IMG/VR virus record: IMGVR_UViG_3300025133_000029
Coordinates: 1 to 64,000 of that record
Reading direction: 5' to 3' (one strand)
Source: a virus
DNA: 64,000 nucleotides
This document shows, in pieces, positions 33 through 17,635 of this stretch (position 1 is the first letter of the stretch; the number at the start of each line of letters is the position of its first letter). The notes below the pieces were generated by a model. The model had not been told where the DNA came from, did no database searches, and saw nothing but the letters and a program-made list of their open reading frames with translations. The position numbers were made by a program, and so were the translations under genes.

Positions 33-108
33 AGCGGAGTGGCGCAGTTGCGGTAAGCGCGGTGGGCTCATATCCCACAGGTCAAGGGTTCAACTCCCTT
101 CTCCGCTT
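33..108 (+). tRNA. tRNA-Met(CAT), initiator-like
   Basis: AGCGGAG/CTCCGCT acceptor stem; anticodon arm GTGGG-CT CAT AT-CCCAC with three consecutive G-C pairs; GGTTCAACTCC T-arm; no encoded CCA. Bases 1-14 look like the 3' end of a preceding tRNA. Confidence 0.85.
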
Positions 109-202
109 TTTATTCTTATGATATTCGTTTTGCTCTTTTCGCATGGAGTGGGATGGATGAACTATTTTTATAGTTTGAATGAACCACGTCATAAGAATAT
201 TT

Positions 203-278
203 AAATGAATAGCTCAGCTTGGTTAGAGCATTCGGTTAATAATCGAAAGGTCGTAGGTTCGAATCCTGTCGCTGGCTT
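203..278 (+). pseudogene. degenerate tRNA-Ile-like (anticodon AAT)
   Basis: D arm (GCTC/GAGC), anticodon arm TTCGG-TT AAT AA-TCGAA and T arm are intact, but the 5' acceptor strand AAATGAA cannot pair with 3' GCTGGCT. Confidence 0.65.
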
Positions 279-295
279 TTGTGGGAGGTGATAGT

Positions 296-685
296 ATGGA
301 TGCACGAGGATTTCATTTGGATGTGGACCAAAAGAGCTTCTTTGAAGATGTGTTGCCTTCTTCGGTTGCTCGTTCATTATGTGATGACTTGGTGGAGATA
401 TGGAGCAGTGCGACGGGAGAGCCGTCAAGTAATCTTGTTGTGCAAAAATCGATAGACCTGTTGGATCTGATGTGTCGGCATCCGGGCCTTGCTTTGTATG
501 AGATACTGGCATTGGTGGAAGATTACGTTGTTGGCGATAGTGAACTGAATGAGTCAGCTCATAGATTCGTACTGACTTGGTTTATAGGTAGGGTTAAGAT
601 CCGGATGGACGAGGCCGAAATGATGCTCCCTATATGGTGGGATGCTCCGTCTGATGACCCAGGGAAGAGTATGTACTTGTATTGA
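296..685 (+). CDS. hypothetical protein inside the tRNA array
   Basis: ORF with GGAGGTG RBS before ATG 296; no motif recognised. Confidence 0.55.
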   Translation: MDARGFHLDVDQKSFFEDVLPSSVARSLCDDLVEIWSSATGEPSSNLVVQKSIDLLDLMCRHPGLALYEILALVEDYVVGDSELNESAHRFVLTWFIGRVKIRMDEAEMMLPIWWDAPSDDPGKSMYLY

Positions 686-693
686 TTGTTTCG

Positions 694-779
694 TGGGAGG
701 TGTTCCTCGCAGCGGACTGTGAATCCGCCGACATGTGTTGCGAGGTGGGCGTCGAGAGGTTTAAATCCTACTTCATCTA
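694..779 (+). ncRNA. atypical tRNA-like element (GTG loop)
   Basis: GCGGA-CT GTG AA-TCCGC anticodon-like arm enclosed by a CCTCGCA/TGCGAGG helix; degenerate T-arm AGG-TTTAAAT-CCT; no canonical D arm. Confidence 0.4.
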
Positions 780-784
780 TTTTT

Positions 785-861
785 TCAAGCAGGACGGTTT
801 TGGTGTCCAGGGATTAAATGTGCGCGCATTGTCCCGAAAGGTTCGACCCCTTTTGCTTGAG
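785..861 (+). ncRNA. tRNA-like element with non-canonical anticodon arm
   Basis: TCAAGCA/TGCTTGA acceptor; GGAC/GTCC D-like arm; AAAGG-TTCGACC-CCTTT T arm; the middle arm GGGA...TCCC lacks a 7-nt loop. Confidence 0.5.
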
Positions 862-876
862 CTAAAGAGAAATTCT

Positions 877-948
877 CCCGCGTTGGTCTAGTGGTTATGG
901 CACCGGTCTGTCGAATCGGAAAGAGGAGTTCGATTCTCCTACGCGGGG
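877..948 (+). tRNA. tRNA-Asp(GTC)
   Basis: CCCGCGT/ACGCGGG acceptor; CCGGT-CT GTC GA-ATCGG anticodon arm; G73. Confidence 0.9.
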
Positions 949-1007
949 CTATTTTTTACTGGGGTTGCGCGATAATGCTTGTTGGCATTATGCTTCTTTT
1001 GGTTTCT

Positions 1008-1080
1008 GGGGCTATAGCTCAATTGGGAGAGCGCTAGGTTTGCAACCTGGAGGTCGTCGGTTCGACCCCGACTAGTTCCA
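1008..1080 (+). tRNA. tRNA-Ala(TGC)
   Basis: GGGGCTA/TAGTTCC acceptor with G3:U70; CTAGG-TT TGC AA-CCTGG anticodon arm. Confidence 0.93.
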
Positions 1081-1092
1081 CTAGTTTTTTTT

Positions 1093-1165
1093 GCCCCGAT
1101 AGCTCAATTGGCAGAGCAGTAGTTTTGTAAACTACAGGTTCTCGGTTCGATTCCGGGTTGGGGCT
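1093..1165 (+). tRNA. tRNA-Thr(TGT)
   Basis: GCCCCGA/TTGGGGC acceptor; GTAGT-TT TGT AA-ACTAC anticodon arm. Confidence 0.92.
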
Positions 1166-1479
1166 TTTTAGAATGATTGGGATCGAGTATCGAGCTAGGT
1201 TCCAATAAAATCGAAGGGCATGGGTCGCCACCTCAAACAACTTCGACATAACCTCGTTGGGCGTTGTGAGGTTTCTTTTCTGACAGGGAAGTGTTCAGGA
1301 TGGGATTTCCTGGGCCTTGGAATCCTACCCCTAAGTAACCATGGCAATGTTTAGGGATGGTAGATTTAAGAATATAAAACGAGACTTAGCGGTCAAAAGT
1401 GATTGAATCTTAGCGCGGGGTCAAACCCGTCCAGATGTGTGCATGTTAATGTGACCACAATAACCTGTTGGTTTCTTCT

Positions 1480-1553
1480 CTATCTGTGGCGCAGTCCGGT
1501 AGCGTACTGGTTTTGGATACCAGTGGTCGTAGGTTCAAATCCTACCAGATAGA
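1480..1553 (+). tRNA. tRNA-Pro(TGG)
   Basis: CTATCTG/CAGATAG acceptor; CTGGT-TT TGG AT-ACCAG anticodon arm. Confidence 0.92.
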
Positions 1554-1556
1554 CTT

Positions 1557-1636
1557 CTCCTCCTTTACAGTCAATGGTAGACGGCATGCAGTGTGCAGTA
1601 TGCGGGTGGTAGGTTCGAGTCCTCTAGGGGGGGGGA
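1557..1636 (+). pseudogene. degenerate tRNA-like sequence
   Basis: GTC-AATGGTA-GAC D arm, GGTTCGAGTCC T loop and a C-rich/G-rich acceptor, but an irregular 8-nt anticodon loop. Confidence 0.45.
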
Positions 1637-1644
1637 GAAGATTT

Positions 1645-1718
1645 GCCTCCGTAGCTCATCTGGATAGAGCGTCAGATTTCTACTCTGAGTGTAGTGGGTT
1701 CGAGTCCTACCGGGGGTA
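1645..1718 (+). tRNA. tRNA-Arg(TCT)
   Basis: GCCTCCG/CGGGGGT acceptor; TCAGA-TT TCT AC-TCTGA anticodon arm. Confidence 0.9.
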
Positions 1719-1739
1719 TTTTTTTACTTAAAGTGCTTT

Positions 1740-1814
1740 TCTCCTATAGCTCAGCTTGGTCAGAGCAATTGACTGTTAATCAATGGGTCGGAGGTTCAAA
1801 TCCTCCTGGGAGAG
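1740..1814 (+). tRNA. tRNA-Asn(GTT)
   Basis: TCTCCTA/TGGGAGA acceptor; ATTGA-CT GTT AA-TCAAT anticodon arm. Confidence 0.93.
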
Positions 1815-1815
1815 C

Positions 1816-1920
1816 TTTTGTTCTGCATCGGGTTGGTGCCGTAATTTATCAAGAATTCTGACGGATTTTGATGAGTCGGTTTACGGTTCTCGGAAGAAGA
1901 TCTTTTGGGACAGAACAAAA
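1816..1920 (+). ncRNA. candidate structured small RNA between tRNA-Asn and tRNA-Glu
   Basis: Perfect 10-bp terminal helix TTTTGTTCTG/CAGAACAAAA enclosing two further hairpins. Confidence 0.4.
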
Positions 1921-1924
1921 ACAT

Positions 1925-2003
1925 GGCCTTGTCGTTCACGGTAGGTTAGTTAGGACGCCAGCCTTTCAAGCTGAAGAACCGGGTTCGACCCCCGGTGGGG
2001 CCA
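1925..2003 (+). tRNA. tRNA-Glu(TTC)
   Basis: GGCCTTG/TGGGGCC acceptor; CAGC-CT TTC AA-GCTG anticodon arm; enlarged D loop. Confidence 0.85.
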
Positions 2004-2013
2004 TTTTCTTTAA

Positions 2014-2087
2014 GGACCTATAGCTCAATTGGTTAGAGCTTCCGGCTCATAACCGGATGGTTTCTGGTTCGATCCCAGATGGGTCCA
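2014..2087 (+). tRNA. tRNA(CAT), Ile2-like or elongator Met
   Basis: GGACCTA/TGGGTCC acceptor; TCCGG-CT CAT AA-CCGGA anticodon arm; overall style resembles lysidine-modified Ile2 tRNAs. Confidence 0.85.
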
Positions 2088-2095
2088 TTTTTTTT

Positions 2096-2238
2096 GCGGG
2101 AATGGTCTAATGGTAAGACGGAGGCGTTTCCAGCCTTTCAGTGCAATTTCAGATCATAAACTCGAGAGGCATTTGTCTTTCATTCTTGTGTATCTTACAA
2201 GCGCGTTTCAGATGTTGGTTCGATTCCAGCTTCCCGCT
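2096..2238 (+). tRNA. tRNA-Gly(TCC)-like with a ~70-nt insertion in the anticodon loop
   Basis: GCGGGAA/TTCCCGC acceptor plus U73 (Gly identity); D arm GTCT/AGAC; GAGGCG/CGTTTC anticodon stem; TT TCC A followed by an insert at ~2133-2202; T arm GTTGG-TTCGATT-CCAGC. Confidence 0.65.
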
Positions 2239-2404
2239 CTATTTTACTGAATCTAGTATTCGGTGTTTTTCTTGTGCCAGATCCTCGCTCCTTCCTGGTT
2301 GATTCTCTAGCAGGGTTATAGATTGATTTTGCGAAATGAGAACAAGGATCGCCACCCCCTGGTCTTTGTCCAGCGCTTGGGGGTGAGGGGATGGCTCCTT
2401 TTTT

Positions 2405-2488
2405 GTCGGAATGGTGGAATCAGGTAGACACGCTTGACTTAAAATCAAGTACTCGAAGAGTGTGTGGGTTCAATTCCCACTTCCGACA
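2405..2488 (+). tRNA. tRNA-Leu(TAA)
   Basis: GTCGGAA/TTCCGAC acceptor; CTTGA-CT TAA AA-TCAAG anticodon arm; long variable arm. Confidence 0.93.
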
Positions 2489-2493
2489 TATTT

Positions 2494-2653: not shown

Positions 2654-4609
2654 ATGGTACAACAAGTCGTTCCGGATATGGAGCAAAGATTGGAGAGTCT
2701 TGGTCCTGCAGAGAGGATCTTGAATCACATGTTGGAGTATGTGGATCACCTTTTCCACAATCGTATTGGTATGGTTGTGGAGGATGCCAGAACCCGAATT
2801 GGCGTTCGGTGGCATCACGTCTCATACGAAGAAAAAGATGGACAGAAGGAGGTCATTCGCCTCGACAAAGTTGGAAAGAAGACAACGCGAACCCCTGTGG
2901 GTATTTGGGGTGAAGACGATCTTATTCGAAAAGATGGTGTTGTCGTGGGCCGTTATCAGCCTGCGGGAATCTTCAAAGAGGTCGCGGTTTACATCTATCG
3001 AAACATCGCAGAGATTTGGGCGATGGATCAAGACTTCGTGGCACGCTGGGCTTCGTATGTGTTTTCGCAAGATCACCGTGATATGAAGGTGATTGTTGCA
3101 GCATTTATGTTGGTTCAGTCAGATCGTAGAGGAGATCCTATCCGGAGTGAAGAAACGGGCGAGATTCTTTTCTACGATGAAGACTATCGCGATATTGGTG
3201 AGGCGATGTGCCTTATTCGGCGTCGGGGTTCTGACTTGGGGCCTCGCGAGATTGAACGGATGTTTGATGTTTTGCGGCTTCCTGCAATCGCGGCGATTAA
3301 CCGGGAATTGGGTTTCACTTCTTCTCCCACAAGAAAGGCAAAGGGTCGCCTACCTTCGGTCGTTCGCAGATGGCTTGGGTTTAGAGAGAGAAATCGTCCT
3401 CTCTTGGATGGGATTGTCCGGGCAAGCATGAAGAGAACGGTGTGGCGTTTGTGTCAATACTCTAACTACAAACCTGCGGGTGAAGAATTCTTCCAGGTTC
3501 TGGGCTACAAGCAGAAGCAACGGGACGACGGTCGAAGAAAGATAGCTCTTGATATCGAGATGCCGCAGGCAGAGTCGTGGGAGGGTTTGTCGGAGAGTGA
3601 CATCTGCCAGAAGATATCGGATGAGCGTCTTTCCTTGAAGTATGTGGTAGGGAAGCTTCCATCTTCTGTGGGTATGACGCCAGCAGTTGTTGCAGCATCC
3701 ATGATGCATGGCGGAATGTCGGCAAAAGAAATTCTCATCGCTTCTCCCACTCTTGAGGCTTTGGGACTCCTGGATGTTCCAGAGATCAAGGCAAAGCATG
3801 CAGAGGCGTTGGCGCAGGTGGCCAAGAGAGCCGAGGACCAACGTGCAGCAAATATTGCGATGCGTATGCGCAAAAAAGAGAACGTGCAAGCTTTGGAGCA
3901 AGTGAGCGAAGCAGTTGTGGCGAAGAAGGTTGAAAAATCTTTGGAAGACTTCATGCTTTATCTTGTCATCGACAGGTCTATTTCAATGCGAGGTTCCTTG
4001 GAGAGGGGTAAACAAATGCTGCTCCAGATGCTTCCTGGCATTTTGCAGGTGGGAATGGATAAAATCAAAGTTTCCACATTCAATACAGACGGGAAGGAGA
4101 TTAGGTTCCGCCATGCTTCTGCAGAGGGGGTTGAGCATGCTTTTCGGAGTGAAAAGGCAAGTGGAGGTACTGCTTATGCAGAGGGCGTTCGGGTTCTCAA
4201 TGGGTATCCTCCCAAAGATCACGAAGAATCCATTATCTTCTTTGTTGGTGATCAGGAGGACAGAAACACAGACGGTCTTGTTCGGGCCATTAATCTTTCG
4301 GGACTGCGCCCTGCAGCGTTTGGTTTGATTGAAGTTCTGAGTCCCACACAAATGAGAGATACGAGGCGTCCACGGATTGTGGAGGCAACGGCTGCTCGTT
4401 TGGGTATTCCGTGTTTCATGATTGAAGAAGACACCTTCAGTGATCCCTATGCGCTTCCTCGGACGTTACAACGTTTGATCGAGTCGACTCCGGTTACGGA
4501 ACAAGTCACAGCGAGTCGTGCTTCGGTTGGTAGGGGACGTCGGAAGTCTTTGATTGAGAAAATTTTAGAGACAGATCTTCTTCGAAAGCCTGGATGGGCG
4601 ATGGGATAG
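2654..4609 (+). CDS. TROVE/Ro60-like helical protein with C-terminal vWA domain
   Basis: AGGAGGAG RBS; MIDAS motif DRSIS...GGT...VGD. N-terminal segments DQDFVARWASY, RLCQYSNYKP and ESWEGLS resemble TROVE blocks. The vWA call is firm; the TROVE call is inferred. Confidence 0.7.
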   Translation: MVQQVVPDMEQRLESLGPAERILNHMLEYVDHLFHNRIGMVVEDARTRIGVRWHHVSYEEKDGQKEVIRLDKVGKKTTRTPVGIWGEDDLIRKDGVVVGRYQPAGIFKEVAVYIYRNIAEIWAMDQDFVARWASYVFSQDHRDMKVIVAAFMLVQSDRRGDPIRSEETGEILFYDEDYRDIGEAMCLIRRRGSDLGPREIERMFDVLRLPAIAAINRELGFTSSPTRKAKGRLPSVVRRWLGFRERNRPLLDGIVRASMKRTVWRLCQYSNYKPAGEEFFQVLGYKQKQRDDGRRKIALDIEMPQAESWEGLSESDICQKISDERLSLKYVVGKLPSSVGMTPAVVAASMMHGGMSAKEILIASPTLEALGLLDVPEIKAKHAEALAQVAKRAEDQRAANIAMRMRKKENVQALEQVSEAVVAKKVEKSLEDFMLYLVIDRSISMRGSLERGKQMLLQMLPGILQVGMDKIKVSTFNTDGKEIRFRHASAEGVEHAFRSEKASGGTAYAEGVRVLNGYPPKDHEESIIFFVGDQEDRNTDGLVRAINLSGLRPAAFGLIEVLSPTQMRDTRRPRIVEATAARLGIPCFMIEEDTFSDPYALPRTLQRLIESTPVTEQVTASRASVGRGRRKSLIEKILETDLLRKPGWAMG

Positions 4610-4633
4610 TTTCTGTGTCGATAGGGGGGTGTT

Positions 4634-4670
4634 ATAAAGAGAGTGACTTGCTCCAAGTCACTCTCTTTAT
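4634..4670. terminator. perfect 17-bp hairpin downstream of the vWA gene
   Basis: ATAAAGAGAGTGACTTG-CTC-CAAGTCACTCTCTTTAT. Confidence 0.65.
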
Positions 4671-4688
4671 GTTTTTGAAGGAGTTTTT

Positions 4689-5390
4689 ATGAAAACGAAG
4701 AATATTGGTCGTGCAAAGAAATGGTCTCGTGTACATGTGGTCGTTTTGGTTGTGGGAGTAGCACTGTCAGTCTTGCTGATAGGTGTGTCATCAATTCTTT
4801 GGTTGAAAGTAAAAAAAGTGGCTTGGGGTATTTCGTTGCTTTTGACTGGAGGGTTCACAATGGGAATGTCTATTTATGGATATTTTCAATTACGGGAAAT
4901 GTATAATTGGAGTGAGTTGTATTGGAATACGAAGGTACCATCGTATAAAAGAAAAGGTACGGGATGGAAGAAGCTTTTGACGCATTGGTATGGACTTTTG
5001 GGTTTTGTGTGGTCTCTGCCAGTGTCTTTGCCATATGCCCTATATGTTTTCTTTTTTGTTTTATTGGGACAATATAGGTTTGTAAGAAGATACGGTTGGA
5101 CGCTAGAATTTGAAACGGTGTACAATAGCTGGGTACACAAGAAATATTGGGAAGGGAAGTGGTCTGGAGCCAATGGTGGGGCTATAACGGTGTATAGTCA
5201 TTTGTATGTGAATAATGAAGATACACAGGACCATGAACGACGACACGCTTGGCAGGTTTTTTGTTTTGGTTTCTATGGGGTTTTTATTTATGCGATCCAT
5301 TCTATTTATTTATATGCATCGGGAAAAGATGGATACAGGGATGTCTTTTTAGAAGAAGAGGCTCGCAGAGCGGAACATTTAGATCACTAG
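4689..5390 (+). CDS. membrane protein with HExxH motif (putative zinc peptidase)
   Basis: Several hydrophobic segments; DHERRHAWQ and a downstream LEEEAR glutamate. Confidence 0.55.
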   Translation: MKTKNIGRAKKWSRVHVVVLVVGVALSVLLIGVSSILWLKVKKVAWGISLLLTGGFTMGMSIYGYFQLREMYNWSELYWNTKVPSYKRKGTGWKKLLTHWYGLLGFVWSLPVSLPYALYVFFFVLLGQYRFVRRYGWTLEFETVYNSWVHKKYWEGKWSGANGGAITVYSHLYVNNEDTQDHERRHAWQVFCFGFYGVFIYAIHSIYLYASGKDGYRDVFLEEEARRAEHLDH

Positions 5391-5433
5391 AAAGTTGCGA
5401 TGGATTGTGCTTTCTTACCTGACAGGAGTCGAT

Positions 5434-6402
5434 ATGGTTTGGCAGGCATTATTGAAACCAGAGGTGGGGCAAGAACGTTTTGTGGCTCCTTGGTTTGGGC
5501 AGAAACAAATTTTATCACCAAAGGGCAGATGTTTTTCTCTAAAGGGAAGGCGTCATCGGGAGCATGGATGGTATTTTTTTGAAATCACTAAGCCCAAGAT
5601 AGTGAGGTGTGTGTTGGGCGAGGAGGCGTCTGCACCAGATGGTTGGGGGGAGAGCGAAAGAAGGGTCCAGGGATACGCTGTAGGGGATAGGTTGATTCTG
5701 GATAGTATTGGCTTTGTAAATGATCCTTCTAAAATCATTGAGCATTCGAGGTCGGTTTATTTTTTGGATCCGGGTTTAGATCGTTTTTCCAGAGTATCTG
5801 CAGTGGAATACGAGAGCGGAGATTTGTTATTTTATCAGCAAGAGTTTCCTTTGGGTCCTGAGTCTTTGGCATTGGATGCTTTTTTGGATGGAAGAGAAGA
5901 TTTGAGTGGGATAAAAGAAGTTACTCCTGCATTGCATTTTTCTTTTCTGTTTGAGCGGTGGGTTCAGGAGGAGCAGAGGGCAAGGATTCGAATTCTAGAG
6001 GAACATCGTCTAGAGCAAGAGCGCCTTTTGCGTGAAGCGGAGATGAGGGCGGAGATAGAGCGCTCAGTGGGCGATGGGGCGTCTAGAAGGGCGATGGCCT
6101 TGGTAGATTTTGAGGCGGCAGCAGGGGCGGCTTTGCGGCTTTCTGGGGCAGAACTGTTAGATGTGAGAGATGGCTATCGGGGGGAGAAAACAATTCGTTT
6201 TCGTTATAGGGAGAGGCGCTTTTGTTCGGTTATCAACGGTACTACTTTGGAAGTTATAGATTCTGGCATTTGTTTGGTGGGGAATGATCGATTATTTACG
6301 TTAGAAAGCCTTCCCAGTGTTATTGGAATGGCTATGGATGAAGGAGTTCTTCACGTTTTTCGTCGGGTAGATGATTATTATGGATATGGCGATGATGATT
6401 AG
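5434..6402 (+). CDS. hypothetical protein, coiled coil plus C-terminal DSGICL motif (possible E2-like)
   Basis: AGGAG RBS before ATG 5434; central EEQRAR...EIER coiled coil; IDSGICL resembles the E2 G-x-I-C-L active site. Confidence 0.45.
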   Translation: MVWQALLKPEVGQERFVAPWFGQKQILSPKGRCFSLKGRRHREHGWYFFEITKPKIVRCVLGEEASAPDGWGESERRVQGYAVGDRLILDSIGFVNDPSKIIEHSRSVYFLDPGLDRFSRVSAVEYESGDLLFYQQEFPLGPESLALDAFLDGREDLSGIKEVTPALHFSFLFERWVQEEQRARIRILEEHRLEQERLLREAEMRAEIERSVGDGASRRAMALVDFEAAAGAALRLSGAELLDVRDGYRGEKTIRFRYRERRFCSVINGTTLEVIDSGICLVGNDRLFTLESLPSVIGMAMDEGVLHVFRRVDDYYGYGDDD

Positions 6403-6454
6403 AGAATAAGTGGGAGTTATTGTTTCTTTTTTCTTTTACCTAAAAATCAAAAAA

Positions 6455-6471
6455 TCTTTAGAGTCTAAAGA
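6455..6471. repeat. 17-bp dispersed palindrome, copy 2
   Basis: TCTTTAGAGTCTAAAGA with A6/T6 extended arms. Confidence 0.95.
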
Positions 6472-6490
6472 TTTTTTGCAAGGAATAGTC

Positions 6491-6982
6491 ATGTCATTTT
6501 TAGAAACTGCGGTTGTTATTGGCAAAAATGGGGATCCCCTCTATTGGCATGAACCTTTGGGGAGGACTTCCGTCTATATCCCCGATTCCCAAAATTTGTG
6601 GGATGTTCTTTGGGAAAACAGGGACGATCTTTTGGGTGTTGCACACACACATCCAGGGAATGGGAAGCCAGTTCCTTCTCCAATAGATTTGGACACATTC
6701 TATGGGTGTGAACTAGGTCTAGGCTTCGGGCTGGCATGGTGGATAGCAACAGAGGATGAATTTCAAGAATTTAGACTTGTTCATTTTGATAGGAAGGTGG
6801 TTTTTCCGGGGTTGGATGAGTCTAAAGCAGAAAAATTTATTTGTTCGCCCACATCATGGATGGATTCTTCTGGTCTTTGTTATTCTACTTCGTTGTTTGA
6901 ACTGTGTAAATTGGGGCCTGATAAGCGGGTACCTGATTGGGTACATGAATTGCGTAGCAGGTCTGGCTACGAAGGAGATTAA
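6491..6982 (+). CDS. JAB/MPN+ (JAMM) metallopeptidase
   Basis: N-terminal E (LET) plus LGVAHTHPGNGKPVPSPID, a JAMM-type HxH...SxxD motif. Confidence 0.85.
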   Translation: MSFLETAVVIGKNGDPLYWHEPLGRTSVYIPDSQNLWDVLWENRDDLLGVAHTHPGNGKPVPSPIDLDTFYGCELGLGFGLAWWIATEDEFQEFRLVHFDRKVVFPGLDESKAEKFICSPTSWMDSSGLCYSTSLFELCKLGPDKRVPDWVHELRSRSGYEGD

Positions 6983-6988
6983 AAAACG

Positions 6989-7282
6989 ATGACAACAGCA
7001 TTGGTTACTACGATTCGAGATGATCAAGCAAAATTGAACATCACATGGGAAGGGCAAAACGGAGAACTTCCTGACGCGGTCCCTGCAAGCTCGAGCGACG
7101 AAGAGGTCAAAAGGTTCGCAGAGGAAGCCGTGCGAGGGGGAGACGTTCCGGGTATTTCGGCAGATCCCAATGCGGACTTTTCGAGCTTTGTCGTTCGTCG
7201 GTATGAACCGGAGGCGAGGGTTCCATATCTTCGGTTTTTCTTGCAACCCAAAACTCAGTTTGGGATTGCTCCAAAATGGTAG
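6989..7282 (+). CDS. small ubiquitin-like (beta-grasp) protein candidate
   Basis: 97 aa; strand-strand-helix-strand pattern; ends LRFFLQPKTQFG-IAPKW; directly after JAB and upstream of E1. Confidence 0.6.
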   Translation: MTTALVTTIRDDQAKLNITWEGQNGELPDAVPASSSDEEVKRFAEEAVRGGDVPGISADPNADFSSFVVRRYEPEARVPYLRFFLQPKTQFGIAPKW

Positions 7283-8142
7283 CGCATCCAGGAGAAATGA
7301 CGGCAAGGGATCGCTTCTACAGTGATAGGTTAGAGAAAACCTTTTTCATTATAGAAGCGACTTCCTTTGAGCAGCACACTCTTTGGCAGAACCACCACTA
7401 CTACCCAACTCTCTCGCTAGATTATAGAGGATTTCGAGAGGAGTCTGTTTCGTGGGATAGTCTGTCTGGGATAATTATAACGATAGGGCACTTGGGGGAA
7501 AAGCTAGTTGCTATTTCTTTATCGTGGGTTATGGTTAATGGAGTGCCTGTTCTGTTTTGGTGTCCTAGCTCGAAAGTGGTTTGCTATGACTTGATAGAGA
7601 AGTGGTTCTCTGAGAATTGTGTACCAGAACGATGGGGTAATGGTACGCGAAGGTCGTATACGGATGCGAACAACTTCAGTCATTGTAGAATTGCAATTAA
7701 AGAATATAAGGATGGCGAACACAGCAATCCTTATAAATATCCATTTGACTTTCCGATACATTCACCACCAAAGGAAATCGATCTGAAAGATTTGGAAGCT
7801 TTTGATTTAGCAAAGCGACAGAAGGATCTGGATGTTTGTTGCAGATCTTGTGGTCGAAGTGATATCCGCCTCTATCGAAGCTATGGGGGATTTCGGCGAA
7901 CCGAAGAAGATAGATGCAACGAGCATCTGGAGGAGGTCTGTTCGGGTGAGGATTTTAGGGGGTGGTATGTTCCTCTTATAGTCGATGATGCGGGGAATGC
8001 ATGGGGATATACTTCAGTTCCGCAAAATGCTATAGATGCTTTCTATGGTTTAGAAGATTTTACACAGGAAAAACCATATTGGTGTGGTCCTGGTGAAAGA
8101 TCTGATGGGATTTCGGGTTGGTCTAATCGGTCATTGGCTTAG
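7276..8142 (+). CDS. hypothetical protein
   Basis: Overlapping ORF in the operon; CxxC in the second half. Confidence 0.6.
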   Translation: MVAHPGEMTARDRFYSDRLEKTFFIIEATSFEQHTLWQNHHYYPTLSLDYRGFREESVSWDSLSGIIITIGHLGEKLVAISLSWVMVNGVPVLFWCPSSKVVCYDLIEKWFSENCVPERWGNGTRRSYTDANNFSHCRIAIKEYKDGEHSNPYKYPFDFPIHSPPKEIDLKDLEAFDLAKRQKDLDVCCRSCGRSDIRLYRSYGGFRRTEEDRCNEHLEEVCSGEDFRGWYVPLIVDDAGNAWGYTSVPQNAIDAFYGLEDFTQEKPYWCGPGERSDGISGWSNRSLA

Positions 8143-8146
8143 GGAT

Positions 8147-8707
8147 ATGATTATTGTAGATTCCTTACAAAATGATCCGACAAATGTTATTTTTTTAGAC
8201 ATGGATGGCGTTCTCAATAATAGAGATTTTTTAACAGAATCATTTCTAAGATGGAAGAGAGATAAAAAGAAGGGAATTGTTAAAGACTGGGGAATTGGTG
8301 AGGGGTTTTTGTATTTGATTTGCGAACAACTGGTAGAGCGACTGAATCGAATAACATTGGCCACAGATGCAAAGTTAGTAATGTCTTCTTCTTGGCGTTA
8401 TTCGTGGTATGAAGACTTTGAGGGACTTCAAGATTTATTCAAAAATGCAGGGATTCAAGGTGAGTTAATAGGGATGACGCCTTTGGGAGTGTCTGGAGGG
8501 GATTCGCGAGGAAAACAGATACAACGATGGTTGGATGAAAATCTTAAAAATTCTAAAGGGTGGCAAATAAATAGATTTATCATTTTGGATGATAGTTCTG
8601 ATATGGAGCATTTGATGTCGTTCTTGGTGAGGACAAGCTTGCATGGCCCCATGGGAGGTTTGCAAGACAAACATGTAAAAAAAGCAATCTCTCAATTATT
8701 AGGATAA
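8147..8707 (+). CDS. HAD-superfamily phosphatase (Swiss-army-knife RNA-repair-like HAD)
   Basis: FLDMDGVLN, MSSSWR, RGKQIQRWL and IILDD motifs. Confidence 0.8.
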   Translation: MIIVDSLQNDPTNVIFLDMDGVLNNRDFLTESFLRWKRDKKKGIVKDWGIGEGFLYLICEQLVERLNRITLATDAKLVMSSSWRYSWYEDFEGLQDLFKNAGIQGELIGMTPLGVSGGDSRGKQIQRWLDENLKNSKGWQINRFIILDDSSDMEHLMSFLVRTSLHGPMGGLQDKHVKKAISQLLG

Positions 8708-8744
8708 TAAGAATATTGTTTTTTTTGAATCCAATGGAGTTGTT

Positions 8745-9371
8745 ATGCCTTTTGGTAAACTTATTCCTGAAATGGAGACGTATTTAGCGAATCTATGTGC
8801 AGGACGTCATGTGTGGGATTTAGGTGCAGGTGATTGCATAAGGTCCTTGGGTTTGTATAACTTGGGTGCATCAAGGGTTACAGCGGTTGATAAGGCTTTT
8901 CTTAAGGGGGAGTTGGGAAATCCATCTGTTGCAGAAGGTCTTCCGGATCTATACAGAGATGATTGGTTTTCTGCGATTGCTTGTTATTTCGAAGATCTTT
9001 TTTCAGGAAATCATATTCCTAGAGATGGAATTGATATTGCCTTTGTTTCTTGGCCAGTTGACAAGCGGAGTATGTCGGGTTTAGTCAAAGTGTTGGAAGC
9101 ATCTGATGTTATTGTTTATTTGGGCAAAAATACAGATGGAACTCAGTGTGGCAATGCGGAGTTGTTTCGGTATTTACTCCATAGAGAAATATTAGTGCAT
9201 ATTCCTTGTGAGATAAACACATTGATTGTGTACGGAGATGTGAGGATGTGTAGAAGGGAGAGAATTCTTTTCGAGGAGTATTGTGCTTTTTATCATGGCT
9301 TAGTCTCTTATGATTCTGGCTATGCGCAATTGAATCAGGATATGTTGTATTGGTTAAATTTTGGGTCTTAA
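8745..9371 (+). CDS. SAM-dependent methyltransferase-like protein
   Basis: VWDLGAG motif I, VTAVD motif II, FVSWP. Confidence 0.6.
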   Translation: MPFGKLIPEMETYLANLCAGRHVWDLGAGDCIRSLGLYNLGASRVTAVDKAFLKGELGNPSVAEGLPDLYRDDWFSAIACYFEDLFSGNHIPRDGIDIAFVSWPVDKRSMSGLVKVLEASDVIVYLGKNTDGTQCGNAELFRYLLHREILVHIPCEINTLIVYGDVRMCRRERILFEEYCAFYHGLVSYDSGYAQLNQDMLYWLNFGS

Positions 9372-9383
9372 GGGGAAAGAAAC

Positions 9384-9983
9384 GTGTCAAAGAAAATAGT
9401 TATTGTGGGTGGCGGTGCTCTGGGTTCTCATCTATTGTTTGGCTTGAGGGCACAATTGTTTACTCGTAGTGGCGAAGGACTGTCTGTATGTGTTGTTGAC
9501 TTTGATGTTGTTGAGCAAAAGAACCTTTGGTCTCAATTGCATACTAAGATGTCTATTCGAAAACGAAAATCACAAGCTTTGCAGCAGGCTATGAATGGTC
9601 TTTTTGGGATTCGTATCGAAAGCAACACGAATCGTCTAGAAGAGAATAACAAAGAGGTTATTTTGAATGATGCATTCTTGATTGTGGATTGTGTTGATAA
9701 TGCAGCGACACGAATACTTATTCAAGAGTACGCAAGGGAGAAAAATATTGCGTGTCTCCATGGCGCACTTGCGGCGGGTGGGATTTTTGGAAGCGTCCAT
9801 TGGAATGAGAGGTTTGTAGTGGATGAAGATCCAGAAGAAGAGCAAGCGACGTGCGAGGATGGAGCCTTTCTACCATTCATACAATTCACATCTGCTTTGA
9901 TGGCAGGAACCATTCAGGAGTTCTTGGAGAGTGGGAAAAAGAGAAGCTTTAATCTATTTCCTTGGAATGTTTTAGAAATATAG
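9384..9983 (+). CDS. ThiF/MoeB/E1-like adenylyltransferase
   Basis: IVGGGALGS, DFDVVEQKNL..Q, K, DCVDN; candidate catalytic Cys in EQATCE; no CxxC zinc pairs. Confidence 0.9.
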   Translation: MSKKIVIVGGGALGSHLLFGLRAQLFTRSGEGLSVCVVDFDVVEQKNLWSQLHTKMSIRKRKSQALQQAMNGLFGIRIESNTNRLEENNKEVILNDAFLIVDCVDNAATRILIQEYAREKNIACLHGALAAGGIFGSVHWNERFVVDEDPEEEQATCEDGAFLPFIQFTSALMAGTIQEFLESGKKRSFNLFPWNVLEI

Positions 9984-10020
9984 GGGTTGTGACTTCTTAG
10001 AACATATATAATTGTTATCT

Positions 10021-10075
10021 TAATAATGGGAAGGGGAGATCTTTAGAGTCTAAAGATCTCCCCTTCCCATTATTA
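10021..10075. repeat. 55-bp perfect palindrome centred on 17-bp repeat copy 3 (10040-10056)
   Basis: TAATAATGGGAAGGGGAGATCTTTAGA-G-TCTAAAGATCTCCCCTTCCCATTATTA. Confidence 0.97.
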
Positions 10076-10114
10076 CAAAGTAATCACGGATTTATATTTT
10101 GGAGGATTATTCTT

Positions 10115-12034
10115 ATGCAGGCATTGGTTGAGATAGACTCTGTTTTTTCGCGAGTGTTTTGCTTAGATGAAAAAGGTCAAAAAATAAGTCTAAATCGATG
10201 GATAGAGCTATTTAGGGATGCAGTCTTGTCTGCTACATCGTATATGTCGTCTGGGTGTCAATTCTCAGATAATTATAGAAATGGAACATGGGATGGTCGG
10301 ATTAGGTTACAGAAAACCTTGTCAGGAAGAATTGGTTATTCGTTTCCAACAGGTTTAGTAGGCCATGTCGTACAAATGCTGCAAATGTCGAACATTGCCA
10401 TTAATTACTTGGATTGCAGATCGAAGCCCGTGCCTCATTGTGAGCCATTGCATGAACTAGCAGGGTTTACTCTTCGTTCTTATCAAAATCGCATGATTTC
10501 CTCTATCCTGGAGCAACCTGAGAGTATTTACTCGATAGGAGAGGAGTGGGGAGAATATCTTTATGACGGAACAGGAATAAAAACACCGCTACGAGTATCA
10601 GGACTGGGAATATGGTGTGCTGCGACGGGGGGCGGGAAGACATTAACGGTTGCAGGATTAATAGGTCGCCTTGCAGTAAAGACCCTCTTTGTTGTTTATG
10701 GAAACAATCTTGTCCTGCAGACCTATAGGCGTTTTGAAGAAGCTTTTTCTAATTGGTTTATAACAAATGATTTAACTATGGGTTTGGGAATAGAGGGAAA
10801 CCTGGACGAGGGCTTTGTAACAGTAGCTGGAATAAGCACATTATCGTCTATATTAGAGAGATGTGACAAAACAATCAGTCGTGTAAAGAAAACAATTGGG
10901 GACCTGCTAAAAGAGGGAAAGCTCTCGACCACGGCTAAAAACTTACTTCGTGAGTATTTATCGGTTTATACGAAGGTTTCAAAATCAACTAGACTTTTGG
11001 AGATAGCACAAGAACTATACAATCTAGGCGCTGTATCAGAAAAGGTCTTAAATATTCTTGGTCAGTTCCCTGTTAATTACAGGAATGCTTTGGGTGCCAG
11101 GACGGAGTTGATAGAATACTTAAAAACAGTGGAACTCTTGGTATATGATGAAGCCCATGGAGCAGGAAGCAAGATGGGTTATGGTTTTTGTCAAGAGTGT
11201 CCTGCGTATTATCGTTTGGCGATGTCTGCAACACCTTTGGATCGTTCAGACGAAGCAAACTTGAAGGTCGTGGCGTCTTTTGGTGATTTATTGGTGAATG
11301 TAACTAGTAAAGAGTTGCGGGATGCAGGCGTTCTTCCCCCGGCAGAAATATTTTTGCTTACGGTGCTTGGAGAGGTTGAGGGGAAATGGCCTGGAGCCTA
11401 CACAGACGGTATTGTGAACTATGAGGATAGAAATTCGTGGGTTTTTGATGTTCTGGCGATAGAAAGATCTTTAGGTATGCGGTGTTTGGTCCTTTTTGAT
11501 CGAATCGAACACGGAGAAAATTTGGGTGATGGAATGGAAGCGGGTAGAGGCTCTCTGCATGGAGACACAGGTAGTTTTATTATTCTAGATGGTGATTCAA
11601 GTTTGGATGAGAGAGAAGAGGGCATTGATTTATTTAAGAGTGGGGAAATTGATGTTCTTTTTGCGTCTAAGATTTTCAAGCAAGGGATTGATCTTCCGGA
11701 AATTGATGTTTTAATTGTGGCATCTGGAGGAAAGGGGAAGATTCCGGTTCTACAAGGTTTGGGGAGGGGGTTACGTGGCACGAGATTGAGAGTGTATGAT
11801 TTTTCAGACTTTCAGCACAAAATCCTTGCAAGGCACTCACTAACAAGGCATAAAATCTATGAGTCTCAAGGATGTTATAGTATTAAATACATTCAAACGT
11901 TGAATGAGTTGCGTCAGGTGCTATTAGAGAAGGAAGAAGGAGAAACAAATGACGTCGTCGATAGCGGTACCAATTCCGGAACAAGTCAAGAAGAAAGAGG
12001 AGAAGGAGGGGGACAAGGTTCCTTTGGATTCTAA
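10115..12034 (+). CDS. SF2 DEAH helicase, UvsW-like
   Basis: WDGRIRL N-terminus; AATGGGKT, DEAH, SATP, GIDLP and QGLGRGLR motifs. Confidence 0.85.
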   Translation: MQALVEIDSVFSRVFCLDEKGQKISLNRWIELFRDAVLSATSYMSSGCQFSDNYRNGTWDGRIRLQKTLSGRIGYSFPTGLVGHVVQMLQMSNIAINYLDCRSKPVPHCEPLHELAGFTLRSYQNRMISSILEQPESIYSIGEEWGEYLYDGTGIKTPLRVSGLGIWCAATGGGKTLTVAGLIGRLAVKTLFVVYGNNLVLQTYRRFEEAFSNWFITNDLTMGLGIEGNLDEGFVTVAGISTLSSILERCDKTISRVKKTIGDLLKEGKLSTTAKNLLREYLSVYTKVSKSTRLLEIAQELYNLGAVSEKVLNILGQFPVNYRNALGARTELIEYLKTVELLVYDEAHGAGSKMGYGFCQECPAYYRLAMSATPLDRSDEANLKVVASFGDLLVNVTSKELRDAGVLPPAEIFLLTVLGEVEGKWPGAYTDGIVNYEDRNSWVFDVLAIERSLGMRCLVLFDRIEHGENLGDGMEAGRGSLHGDTGSFIILDGDSSLDEREEGIDLFKSGEIDVLFASKIFKQGIDLPEIDVLIVASGGKGKIPVLQGLGRGLRGTRLRVYDFSDFQHKILARHSLTRHKIYESQGCYSIKYIQTLNELRQVLLEKEEGETNDVVDSGTNSGTSQEERGEGGGQGSFGF

Positions 12035-14175: not shown

Positions 14176-17100
14176 ATGAAGAGTAAACTACCTCAGCCCC
14201 CATTGCCACAGCCTCCTCCGTCATTAGAGGCAACAGCCCACTCTCTTCCTCTTGTTCCTTTGTCGCCTCATTCAGTACCTCCGGAGATGCCTGTTTTTAT
14301 ATCGGCGAATATTCCGGGGTCTGGTAATTCCTTGCCTGTACCGAGCGGAGGAACGGATGGAATGGTTGGTGGGGCGCAACTGGCTAGGAATTCGGTTCAC
14401 CATTTCCCAACACAGCCAGTGGTGGATACCCCATCGCTTAGAGTCGCACCGACATTGCCAGAAAATGTTTGGGCAGAGCCAAAAGCTACAGCGAGTGTTT
14501 TGGATAAGTATCCTTTTCATAGTGAGGTTCAAGATGATATTTTGCGGCTTATGGCAACGAAAAAGCATTTTTCTCGAGCAGCTTTAGATTGGGTTAGACC
14601 TGGATATTTCGAAGGCGACGAGCGTCGAGCATTAGCAGCGACAATGTTAGACTTTTTTAAAGATTATGGATTTCCTCCAACCGAAGGGCAGATGTTCACA
14701 GAGTTGCAGCGGAGAGGGCAGCTTAGTGGTGAACTGAAGGAGAACTTAGAATCTTTAGTGGATAGTGTTTATCGTATTCCTCCAACAACACCAGACTATA
14801 CTGTGGAGGTAGTATCAGAGTTTGCAGAAACCCAGGCTTGGATTTCTGCAGTGTTACGTGCAGGCCCTCTCATCCGGCAAAGAAAATTTTCAGAGATGAA
14901 AAAAATAATGCGGGAAGCAGAGAATATTGGAGGGGTTCTTGAGACGGGCGGGACTTGGTTTTTTGAGGAAACCGAAGAGCGATCCCGACGCAGGAACGAT
15001 GAAGTGCATATTGCTTCTCGTATTATTCCGACAGGTGTTCCAGACCTGGATAGAATCATACGTTATGGTGGACCTGCTAAGGGAGAAGTAGGAATAGTAG
15101 TAGCCAGTACGGGCAAAGGCAAGTGCTTACGAGAAGACACTTGGCTGAGTGTGCCGGGAGGTTACAAACGTCTAGGAGACTTAATAAGAGAAGATATTGG
15201 ATTGGAAGATTTAGAAACAATATCTGAGGGATGGCATCAATTCAACAACCGACCGTTAGTATTTGATGCCAATGGTATTTGTCGTGAAATTGATAAATTC
15301 TATGCTAATGGAAACAAGATTTCTTATTCGGTGACAATGAGGGACGGGATGTCCTTAGTTGGAAGCTCGGAACATCCATTACTTGTAGTGAGGGATGGTA
15401 TCTGGACATGGATAACCATGTCCGAAATAAAAGAGGGAGATGTTGTTGCTTCTTTGCGTGATTCAAAACCTTTTGGTTTGAATTATGATAACGAGGTTTC
15501 GAATAATTTTAGCTTGGGTGGTGATTGGAATATTAGAAAGGGAAAGGAGAAGTTTACTCCTTTGCAGCGGTGGCCGACTAAAGGAAGTTCGGAACTGGCG
15601 GAATGGGTGTCCTTGTTGCTTGCAGAAGGTTATTATAATGCACCTCCAACGGCTCCCTATAGATTATCGTTTACAAATAAAGAAGATGTTCTGATAGATC
15701 GTTTTATATATCTATCACGAGAGTTATTTTCTTTGAATCTTCGGTCAGTTGCATCGGAGGATGGGAGTAAGGTTGTAATAATCGATAGCAAAGCTCTTGT
15801 TCGATATCTTTGTCTAATTGATATTCCTCCCGGACGATCAGCGGACAAGAGAGTACCTGCTTGGATTATGGACGGAGGGGAGGCAATACGGCGATCTTTT
15901 GTTTCAACTTTTTTTACGTGTGAATCGCATGTAAGAGATGACTTTTCGATAGAAATCTCGTCCGCGTCATCAGAAATGATAGAGCAGATACATCTGTTGC
16001 TTCTTTCTGATGGTATTTACTGTCGCTCGTTTGCAAAGCGTGGAACTGCGACAAATGGTCTAGATTTAGAACGTTTATATTTTCGTTTAATTGTTATGGG
16101 GAAAGAAAATCTAAGAAAATATAAGCAAATTGGCTTCATGTCGGGGAGCAATAAGTTTTTTGCTTTCCAAAAAGCATTACAAGCTCCAACATTTTCAAAC
16201 AGCTTAACGAATTTTAGAGATAAAATACATGGAGCACCATCGATATTAAGATCCATCAAGAAAAGAATACAAGAGATGGATTCAACTCCAGGAGGGAGAA
16301 TAAGGAGAGGGCTTGGATTATCGAATCGTCTAGGAAAGCGTATCAGTAATAATTTCAGAGCATCTATAGATCGGAATAGTGTTTCTTATGATTTCTGTTT
16401 GGAAATACTATCTGGATGCTCCAAAATTGAAGATGAGAAACTTCAAGGTTTATTGCAGGAGTTGAGATTATTAATTCGGTATAGAATGATTGAAGTTATA
16501 GATGTGCAAAGGACTCGGTGCTTTACCTATGACATAGAGGTCCCAGATTCTCATCATTTTATTGCCAATTCCTTTGTTTCACACAATTCGATCGCCCTTG
16601 GTCAGTTTGCTAGGAGAGGGGTCTGGGAAGGTGAAAATGTAGCTATTTTCTCTGGTGAGATGTCAGAAGAGAAATTCTCAGATCGTCTTGACGCAGCCTT
16701 CACAGGTTTGCGTATGAACGAGATTGGAAACGAAGAAGAGTTCCTTTCTCGCATGGAGATATTGCGCACACGTTTCAAGAAAAAGCTTTGGATTCGAAGG
16801 TTTCCAACAAAAGGTGCATCTATTGGGGATTTGAGAGCGTCGTTAGAGTCCATGAGGAGGGAAGGTTGGACTCCGGGTATGATTATTTTGGACTATGCAG
16901 CCTTAGTTAAGCCAGAGGTATCGAGAGATCAGAGGCATACCGAGATTCAGGAGATCCTTCAGGCTTTTAGGGGATTGTGTATTGATTTCGACGCAGTGGG
17001 TTGGACTGCACTTCAAGCATCTCGCCAAGGTGAGAAAGCATATATTATTAAGGGTGATCATGTTGCAACGTCTTGGGATAGTTTGGGGGATGCAGATTAT

Positions 17101-17247: not shown

Positions 17248-17301
17248 TTTCGTGCAGCGTGTGCGTCTACAGTTCTTTTATTGGTAATTGAAATTGAAAT
17301 T

Positions 17302-17318
17302 TCTTTAGACTCTAAAGA
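17302..17318. repeat. 17-bp dispersed palindrome, copy 5
   Basis: TCTTTAGACTCTAAAGA, arms ATT/AAT. Confidence 0.95.
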
Positions 17319-17343
17319 AATAACAAACAAAGAGGATTTTAGG

Positions 17344-17622
17344 ATGAGTAAAGATGTGAGAATAATGGAAATAGACTACAAGCTCCCGTATCGAATGGAG
17401 CTTAGCTTTTTGAATCCTTCTTCTACACAATGGATTCTTGATAAGATGGCGTTTATTAAGAAAAGTTTGCGCAGTTTAGGAGGAGGCTTAGATCCAATTC
17501 CTGTAGGAAAGAAGCCGTGGAATATTCGCAGAGTTGGGAAGAAAATCTTATTTTCCTTCACTTATAAGTATATGAAAGCGGTTTCTTTCGTAGATGTGCC
17601 AGAAACCCTAGAAGAGAATTGA
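17344..17622 (+). CDS. hypothetical protein
   Basis: Short ORF between helicase and primase. Confidence 0.5.
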   Translation: MSKDVRIMEIDYKLPYRMELSFLNPSSTQWILDKMAFIKKSLRSLGGGLDPIPVGKKPWNIRRVGKKILFSFTYKYMKAVSFVDVPETLEEN

Positions 17623-17635
17623 GGGAAGCAAGACG

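Follow-up and report, generated by a model that had tools for sequence, protein, structure and literature searches.

A conserved gene module of huge phages predicted to make, trim and activate a ubiquitin-like protein

The window analyzed here comprises the first 64 kb (64,000 nucleotides) of the 161-kb virus record IMGVR_UViG_3300025133_000029 from IMG/VR, which, with an estimated completeness of 68% (CheckV), points to a large or jumbo phage. Positions 2654-9983 of this window hold nine open reading frames (ORFs), all co-oriented, five of which form a cassette encoding a ubiquitin-like protein (Ubl), a JAB-type metallopeptidase, a minimal ubiquitin-activating-type enzyme (E1), a cysteine-bearing protein of 322 residues (hereafter X322) and a von Willebrand factor A (vWA) protein. 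A preliminary description, made from the sequence alone, had singled out these five ORFs as a putative phage-encoded conjugation system; all of them lie on the plus strand at the coordinates it gave, and its start sites for X322 (ATG at 5434) and the peptidase (6491), as well as the motifs it quoted, proved correct. The five genes are as follows.

2654-4609, plus strand: vWA protein of 651 amino acids (aa) that opens the cassette; its N-terminal domain, of no assigned family, spans about 420 aa and precedes a C-terminal vWA domain with a metal ion-dependent adhesion site (MIDAS) formed by D440, S442, S444, T506 and D533
5434-6402, plus strand: X322, 322 aa, described earlier as resembling a conjugating enzyme (E2); two OB-like beta-barrels, a helix at residues 165-211 and a C-terminal alpha/beta domain at residues 225-305
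6491-6982, plus strand: JAMM/MPN+ (JAB) metallopeptidase, 163 aa, with E5, H52, H54, S63 and D66
6989-7282, plus strand: Ubl precursor, 97 aa, with a beta-grasp model, a C-terminal motif running to Gly92 and a five-residue tail, IAPKW
9384-9983, plus strand: minimal ThiF/MoeB-type E1, 199 aa, with GxGxxG, D39, K62, D102-C-x-D105-N, R110 and T156-C157-E158-x-G160

Conservation of this cassette as a unit was assessed across phages and prokaryotes. Megablast of GenBank phages revealed no near-identical DNA, and a pattern scan of viral contigs for the Ubl gave no match. The only relative among the GenBank phages, Virus Rctr197k (KX853510.1), has the same gene order beside its tRNA array; its Ubl homologue (10844-11344) continues for about 60 residues beyond the Phe-Gly (FG) dipeptide, and its vWA homologue (16235-18226, minus strand) carries only the misc_feature label "similar to conserved hypothetical protein" and reads as an intact ORF of 663 aa. 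Three distant X322 relatives, on contigs of 64, 288 and 484 kb, are each encoded within the contiguous series vWA, X322, JAB, small ORF, ThiF, and a scan of viral contigs yielded 70 more cassette loci on contigs of up to 618 kb. When the components were called with hidden Markov models (HMMs) built in this analysis, JAB (72/72), Ubl (72/72) and E1 (69/72) were found downstream of X322, and vWA (71/72) upstream of it, in a total of 72 phage loci. The order vWA, X322, JAB, Ubl, E1 and the common strand are constant across these loci, with proteins that are 35-50% identical. Co-occurrence of the five genes elsewhere, a check suggested by the preliminary description, is observed in phages as well as in bacteria, and it is far beyond chance. 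The setting is also recurrent: at least one tRNA gene is present within 10 kb of the cassette in 66 of the 72 phage loci, and at least three in 54 of them (up to 41). In all seven loci checked the tRNA genes occupy the cassette strand, with tmRNA genes nearby in two of these; phage tmRNA genes located a few kb from the cassette, inside tRNA arrays, are found in L040 (11865-12243, 116 bits) and L046 (17517-17879, 109 bits).

Among prokaryotes, a scan of one genome per species yielded 110 X322 relatives, many of them on phage-like contigs of metagenome-assembled genomes, and 80 loci with bacterial versions of the cassette. The latter include cultured Myxococcota (26-32% identity; loci L113, L123-L125, L127, L131, L135, L141 and L159), with complete chromosomes of Archangium minus and A. 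gephyra among them, which makes the module experimentally accessible. In Myxococcota the module is split: one block holds the genes for vWA, the Cys protein and JAB side by side, and Ubl-E1 forms a second block 5-9 kb further downstream, with no tRNA genes in the vicinity. In A. gephyra, the genes intervening between the two halves include those for a protein of 871 aa that belongs to no family and for a member of DUF1684, the latter being the only informative family found between the Archangium halves; these intervening genes offered no hint of function. A large hybrid histidine kinase is encoded upstream.

The 97-aa protein was confirmed at 6989-7282 with its ending ...QPKTQFG-IAPKW. The expectation that it would adopt a beta-grasp fold is borne out by a confident AlphaFold model (69-sequence alignment; predicted local distance difference test, pLDDT, of 92.3), which has a beta-beta-alpha-beta-beta order of elements and is less ordered past residue 88. 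By sequence, this Ubl is not a member of the described families (ThiS, MoaD, ubiquitin, Prok_Ub): it has no match in Pfam, NCBIfam, PHROG or PADLOC, and 69 relatives have none in Pfam. An exhaustive HMMER search collected 216 relatives with a common C-terminal motif, most often RPKTPFG. The Gly of this motif is kept in every true motif match among 150 Ubl representatives (G92 in 63 of 64 cassette Ubls), and the tail that follows it has 0 (14 cases), 1 (34), 2 (14) or 3-5 (14) residues, or otherwise consists of unrelated sequence of up to 192 aa; in 62 of about 130 Ubls, the tail has only 0-2 residues. The terminal Gly pointed out in the preliminary description is thus conserved in the family, and a constant Gly with variable sequence beyond it is the signature of a Ubl precursor. 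The dipeptide ending at this Gly is FG in 104 cases, YG in 14, VG in 7 and LG in 4, i.e., the terminus is not of the Gly-Gly type. Trypsin would cut at a Lys or Arg that is conserved four positions ahead of the terminal Gly, and the remnant of four residues left behind (TQFG for this phage) would be diagnostic and usable for target mapping.

A zinc ribbon (CxxC...CxxC) fused to or following the Ubl occurs in a minority of loci (7/70; P0267, P0280, P0292, P0313), an arrangement that recalls the eukaryotic ubiquitin fused to zinc-binding ribosomal proteins. As a core part of the module this ribbon was rejected, given its presence in just these loci and in 4 of 54 tails of at least 20 aa.

The E1 is recognized by Pfam ThiF with 74.3 bits (cut-off 28.1; E 1e-20). 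Across 105 relatives from phages and bacteria, the residues G9, G11, G14, D39, K62, D102, D105, N106 and R110 are kept in at least 97% of sequences, and so is Cys157 of the TCExG motif, the only conserved cysteine of the protein and a candidate for the thioester-forming residue. Neither this 199-aa protein nor the consensus of its family contains CxxC pairs, in agreement with its earlier depiction as a minimal ThiF-like E1 with a candidate catalytic Cys and without zinc-binding CxxC pairs, and the protein has no rhodanese domain. PADLOC models of E1-E2 (Cap2) and BilD match this protein with E values down to 4.5e-9, over the adenylation domain only. Modeling of the E1-Ubl pair, another check suggested at the outset, was performed with Ubl residues 1-92 and gave an interaction prediction score from aligned errors (ipSAE) of 0.80 (median of three runs) vs. 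0.00 for the best of three controls, the 0.80 mark being reached by 58 of 80 solved complexes and by 2 of 110 mismatched pairs. The runs share at least 95% of contacts, with a partner pLDDT of at least 90, and place Ubl residues 84 and 86-92 against E1 residues 9, 11-14 and 103-107, which represent the nucleotide loop and the DCxDN site. The predicted docking of Gly92 at the adenylation site supports a mode of binding of the Ubl C-terminus similar to that of MoaD-MoeB.

The peptidase at 6491-6982, assigned to the JAMM type in the preliminary description, matches Pfam Prok-JAB with 25.0 bits, exactly at the cut-off of 25, and contains the full catalytic motif (E...HxH...SxxD), which is kept in 64-65 of 65 family members. 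Ten loci have no JAB; in these, the Ubl gene directly follows the 322-aa gene, and the encoded Ubl ends exactly at FG in 10 of 10 cases vs. 13 of 92 loci with JAB (Fisher p 5e-8), a link that is not significant after phylogeny, since the E1 tree contains only about three well-supported independent contrasts of JAB loss, of which two or three go the way expected. The tie between JAB loss and a tail-less Ubl is therefore suggestive. A JAB that exposes the terminal Gly of the Ubl would fit these JAB-less loci with FG-ending Ubls, and the earlier proposal of a cut after Gly92 appears compatible with them; deconjugation is another possible role of this enzyme.

X322 represents a family of at least 126 members with invariant G278, C280, L281 and D285; in a set of 141 relatives from phages and bacteria, at least 97% keep the G-x-C-L...D residues. 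The window protein itself matched no family in the profile searches. Its model (pLDDT 89.6) includes a 47-residue helix, two OB/TRAM-like barrels and a C-terminal domain with only weak UBC/RWD-like fold matches, in which C280 follows the fourth strand (residues 273-276). Of the earlier assignment of an E2-like protein with a GICL motif, the SGICL sequence and its conserved Cys stand, and the E2 identity found no support in the sequence tests, all of them negative. No match at E 1e-3 or better was obtained by Foldseek against PDB, and searches of the ESM Atlas by shape and by features provided no support for an E2. Neither Prok-E2 nor UQ_con was detected by Pfam in 58 X322 members, a PDB profile search with the C-terminal domain gave no E2, and the PADLOC E2 models matched 1 of the 58 members (E 0.02). 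Comparison by hhalign with one and then with 15 Prok-E2_B domains (P 0.36 with the 15) was no better than reversed or unrelated controls. A "TDH" sequence after the Cys occurs in many relatives; it is missing from the window protein and is not conserved. The model leaves X322 as a candidate Ubl carrier with a possible UBC/RWD-like fold.

Two further features of this family were observed. Many X322 relatives end in an acidic tail, often with a final Trp (...DEDW), and the window protein ends in ...YGYGDDD (6370-6402); such a free acidic tail could be a ligand of the MIDAS site of the neighboring vWA protein. Weak matches to the PADLOC model RmrT were found in 13 of 58 members (best E 4.6e-4) over the helix plus the opening strands of the C-terminal domain, including P0060 and P0079 (residues 221-275) and 11 others; they may be a compositional effect.

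For the first protein of the cassette, initially labeled as TROVE-like/vWA, the vWA part of the label is upheld together with a complete MIDAS, whose residues (DxSxS...T...D) at least 97% of 128 relatives retain. The single-sequence Pfam match to the vWA domain is weak, VWA_2 is detected in 32 of 32 relatives (best E 7e-10), and a comparison with PDB points to the vWA domains of BatA/BatB (E 5e-4); contigs of huge phages contain more than 1000 members of this family. The TROVE part of the label, on the other hand, was not matched by any profile search. TROVE (PF05731) was not detected in the vWA protein, 32 relatives, the 161-kb record or five cassette-bearing bacterial genomes, with control genomes matched, nor did phmmer or a profile search against PDB reveal TROVE for this protein. 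Using its N-terminal 420 residues, tblastn of the phage collection returned only Rctr197k; a search for shorter relatives of the vWA protein recovered only fragments of the same family, and none of 301 sampled Verrucomicrobiota genomes contained TROVE at E 1e-15 or better.

A language-model search with the first 420 residues placed TROVE and DUF2828 clusters at the top with 0.85, a value that the tool rates as a lead only. Against a set of five bona fide TROVE-vWA proteins from Myxococcota, the full-length profile comparison was collinear (probability 66%, E 5.6e-5), most of the signal being supplied by the vWA half, which alone reached an hhalign probability of 89% against the Ro60 vWA. The N-terminal domains alone aligned over 232 collinear columns with P 0.029, which is not significant (controls: P 0.07-0.45 over 12-47 columns). 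As to Y RNA, the window has at most 25 bits to Rfam YrlA vs. a gathering threshold of 69, and none was found at gathering in seven related loci; no RNA families were found at the Archangium locus. Whether the N-terminal domain is TROVE-like is a matter of nearly even chances.

Overall, the combination of a Ubl precursor, a peptidase, an E1 and two constant partners leads us to favor, with moderate confidence, a reading in which this conserved huge-phage module makes, trims and activates a small Ubl, most likely for its covalent attachment to a target. The Ubl-JAB-E1 trio and its fixed association with the vWA and Cys proteins are well supported, and the proposal of a phage-encoded modifier system, as far as it concerns the phage's own Ubl, a trimming JAB and an activating E1, is supported by conserved motifs and by the predicted complex; the conjugation chemistry, the E2 role of X322, the Ro60 likeness and the target are what we infer. 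In the proposed pathway, JAB would cut after Gly92, removing IAPKW, and E1 would adenylate Gly92, probably with formation of a thioester on Cys157. The Ubl would then pass to Cys280 of X322, acting in an E2-like manner, or directly to a target lysine, and the vWA/MIDAS protein would recruit the substrate or would itself be the substrate. The OB folds, together with the tRNA-array setting, suggest that the target is linked to RNA or translation.

Several points weigh against this reading. Fold matches of both the Ubl and the C-terminal domain of X322 fall below the safe-match level. No sequence profile ties X322 to any E2 family, and the protein has no HPN motif or conserved His; in view of these negative tests, X322 is a conserved Cys-bearing partner rather than a demonstrated E2. 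The best curated matches of the E1 are the sulfur-carrier activators ThiF and MoeB, and also the SAMP-activating E1, all far below cut-offs, and the score of the E1-Ubl complex may owe something to the model's familiarity with E1-Ubl structures already solved. To these can be added the small number of independent JAB-loss contrasts. No Ubl target emerged from the analysis, and conjugate, thioester and cleavage are all computed, none observed.

In an E2-less alternative, E1 alone would activate the Ubl and hand it to targets, as is the case in archaeal sampylation and in the Thermus TtuB/TtuC system, which operate with no E2; X322 would then be a target, an adaptor or an RNA-binding partner. 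However, the near-invariance of Cys280 within G-x-C-L...D is typical of an active site over a substrate, and X322 is encoded directly beside JAB in every JAB-bearing locus, so we regard this alternative as rather unlikely, if worth keeping in mind. A version of the modifier scenario that draws on the vWA protein appears to us a little less plausible still: this protein would be a very divergent Ro60-like ring, X322 would bind RNA, both being products of genes located in the phage tRNA array, and tagging with the Ubl would control, or act on, tRNA/RNA surveillance during infection.

A sulfur-carrier function is a further alternative. The E1 would adenylate the Ubl, a host persulfide would convert it to a thiocarboxylate, and the sulfur might be used in phage tRNA thiolation, perhaps with X322 as an RNA-binding transferase. 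SAMPs, TtuB and Urm1 act both as sulfur carriers and as modifiers. The curated E1 matches mentioned above are consistent with such a function, as are the location of the cassette inside tRNA arrays in most phage loci and the joining of OB/TRAM-like barrels with an invariant Cys in X322. Nevertheless, the 161-kb record (68% complete, with the host as a possible supplier) contains no PP-loop thiolase (ATP_bind_3, TtuA/Ncs6 type), rhodanese or MoaE, and none of these sulfur enzymes belongs to the conserved cassette; the search covered these three and not ThiG. Moreover, known sulfur carriers end in Gly-Gly, whereas the terminus of this Ubl is aromatic-Gly, the cultured myxobacterial versions have no tRNA genes nearby, and no vWA/MIDAS partner is known to take part in a sulfur relay. 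Taken together, these arguments make a sulfur carrier improbable in our estimate.

Two other possibilities were rejected. The module could resemble a pathway for ribosomally synthesized and post-translationally modified peptides, or a polyprotein, with the Ubl as carrier or leader, JAB releasing the tail as the real product and E1 possibly modifying this tail; ThiF-like enzymes do occur in peptide natural-product pathways (e.g., MccB), and the tails are very variable, reaching 192 aa and in some cases carrying the CxxC...CxxC pattern. It is rejected, as a very remote prospect, on tail lengths, most tails being of 0-2 residues and the JAB-less cassettes tail-free, and it is also at odds with the conserved part of the protein, which is the beta-grasp domain with its terminal Gly, and with the E1 model, which binds the Gly and not the tail. 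Finally, the notion of chance neighbors in an accessory region, for which the four interleaved unrelated genes and the terminator-like palindrome between the halves could be cited, is refuted by the counts of syntenic loci (72 with a common order and strand at 35-50% identity, the cassette staying in place as inserts are gained and lost) and by the retention of the module in bacterial genomes, leaving it practically no credence.

The remaining features of the locus are listed below.

33-2489, plus strand: tRNA array with 10 tRNAs called by ARAGORN and a further tRNA-like gene, at 2096-2238, that contains an insert
2492-2512, no strand assigned: copy of a 21-nucleotide (nt) palindrome preceding the vWA gene, a terminator-like hairpin with flanking A and T runs
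4689-5390, plus strand: hydrophobic protein of 233 aa with no family match, found in 0 of 72 related loci
6453-6473, no strand assigned: palindrome copy between the genes for the Cys protein and JAB
7276-8142, plus strand: 288-aa protein with phrog_18096 at its N-terminus, found in 0 of 72 related loci
8084-8707, plus strand: HAD_SAK_2 phosphatase-like protein (E 9.5e-24), near the cassette in only 3 of 72 loci
8745-9371, plus strand: 208-aa protein with no detected family, near two loci and on the opposite strand there
10038-10058, no strand assigned: palindrome copy after E1, the core of a longer hairpin at 10019-10077

The preliminary description had placed the cassette right after a tRNA array; this array, of 10 genes, ends at 2489, directly upstream. 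Positions 2096-2238, which received no ARAGORN call, match the Rfam tRNA model end to end (42.8 bits over 143 nt), which identifies a tRNA gene holding an insert of about 70 nt. The four genes interleaved with the cassette had been taken in the preliminary description as part of its context, which was not borne out: the 233-aa, 288-aa, HAD_SAK_2 and 208-aa genes are missing from nearly all of the 72 related loci and thus represent local insertions outside the module. Elsewhere, the gaps filled by these inserts in the window are taken by homing endonucleases. HAD_SAK_2 is the HAD domain of "Swiss Army Knife" RNA-repair proteins, and the 208-aa protein has a DLGAGD motif reminiscent of S-adenosylmethionine-dependent methyltransferases.

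The 21-nt palindrome, AATCTTTAGAGTCTAAAGATT, is present at 15 intergenic sites of the window vs. 0.01 expected (starts at 2492, 6453, 10038, 14134, 22594, 26550, 31977, 36879, 42594, 44709, 48891, 51047, 54310, 59161 and 61333) and in more than 40 copies in the 161-kb record; it may be a shared element, either a bidirectional terminator or a regulatory hairpin. The copies at 2492, 6453 and 10038 bracket two units, one from vWA to the Cys protein and the other from JAB to E1, and the middle copy, which is overlapped by the upstream part of a longer ORF starting at 6410, probably marks a transcription-unit boundary. After the long palindrome, a UvsW-like superfamily-2 helicase (10115-12034; phrog_16, E 6e-55) opens the next module.

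The potential significance of the module lies in its carrier and in its partners. Ubl systems with E1 and JAB are known in archaea and bacteria (sulfur transfer, sampylation, CBASS, Bil, Bub); here such a system is carried by viruses and conserved across dozens of huge-phage lineages, along with two partners of no described family, and it is embedded in the tRNA arrays characteristic of these phages. If it conjugates, it would represent protein tagging on the phage side, which could remodel host or phage proteins or counter Ubl-based defenses of the host; if it is tied to RNA, it would provide a new link between tagging and translation. Should the Ro60-like reading be true, it would be the first link of Ubl tagging to an RNA quality-control particle in prokaryotes and their viruses.

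A search of the literature on jumbo, huge and megaphages with ThiF, JAB, Ubl, vWA and TROVE found no paper on this cassette. TROVE proteins in some phages and MoxR-vWA chaperones are mentioned in a 2021 comparative overview of jumbo phages, in which JAB, E1 and Ubl do not figure, and ubiquitin is absent from a 2026 review of these phages. The published idea that comes nearest concerns the bacterial "FtsH ternary" conflict systems, which join vWA-MoxR to a complete set for Ubl conjugation and in which vWA is genetically linked to JAB, E1 and Ubl in bacteria including multicellular forms such as myxobacteria (Kaur et al. 2020, PMC7159879). Their components differ, however, since the conserved phage cassette lacks the MoxR and FtsH ATPases, RING-type E3, Ubl-E2 fusion and caspase-like effectors that these systems contain. 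Ro60/Rsr proteins are built like the phage vWA protein, with a MIDAS vWA domain at the C-terminus behind a large N-terminal domain, and tRNA genes lie beside the phage version; they bind Y RNAs and carry TROVE, whereas the phage family has no TROVE HMM match and a YrlA signal well under gathering (25 vs. 69 bits).

In its biochemical logic, the module is comparable to the archaeal SAMP1-3/UbaA/HvJAMM1 system and to Thermus TtuB/TtuC with its JAMM protease, which likewise combine a beta-grasp modifier ending in a C-terminal Gly, a single MoeB/ThiF-type E1 and a JAMM enzyme without a recognizable canonical E2 (see also PMC4443979 and PMC4895103). In contrast to these, the phage Ubl is a new sequence family with an aromatic-Gly rather than a Gly-Gly terminus, the phage E1 has no zinc-binding CxxC, and the phage module adds two obligatory partners, a vWA/MIDAS protein and an OB-fold Cys protein, sits in the tRNA arrays of huge phages and was found with no sulfur-acceptor enzymes (PP-loop thiolase, rhodanese, MoaE; ThiG was not part of the search). 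Pseudomonas QbsE/QbsD/QbsC and mycobacterial CysO/Mec+/MoeZ also have a JAB beside a Ubl and an E1. In the Qbs pathway, JAB strips the residues that follow the terminal Gly of the precursor, and for the phage JAB an equivalent role is supported by the variable tails and by the Ubls of JAB-less cassettes, which have no tail. Both systems adjoin biosynthetic enzymes that use the thiocarboxylate, and none of these accompanies the phage cassette.

The defense systems CBASS (cyclic oligonucleotide-based antiphage signaling systems; Cap2/Cap3), Bil (BilA-D) and Bub follow the same logic of an E1 with a Cys carrier, a JAB and a Ubl. They differ in having a recognizable Prok-E2 domain, often fused to E1, whereas X322 displays no Prok-E2_B profile similarity, and in being host defenses, whereas the present module is carried by phages, has a vWA partner and lies in tRNA arrays. 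On this comparison, the module is best filed, as previously undescribed as far as the literature search shows, under phage-borne versions of the prokaryotic Ubl systems.

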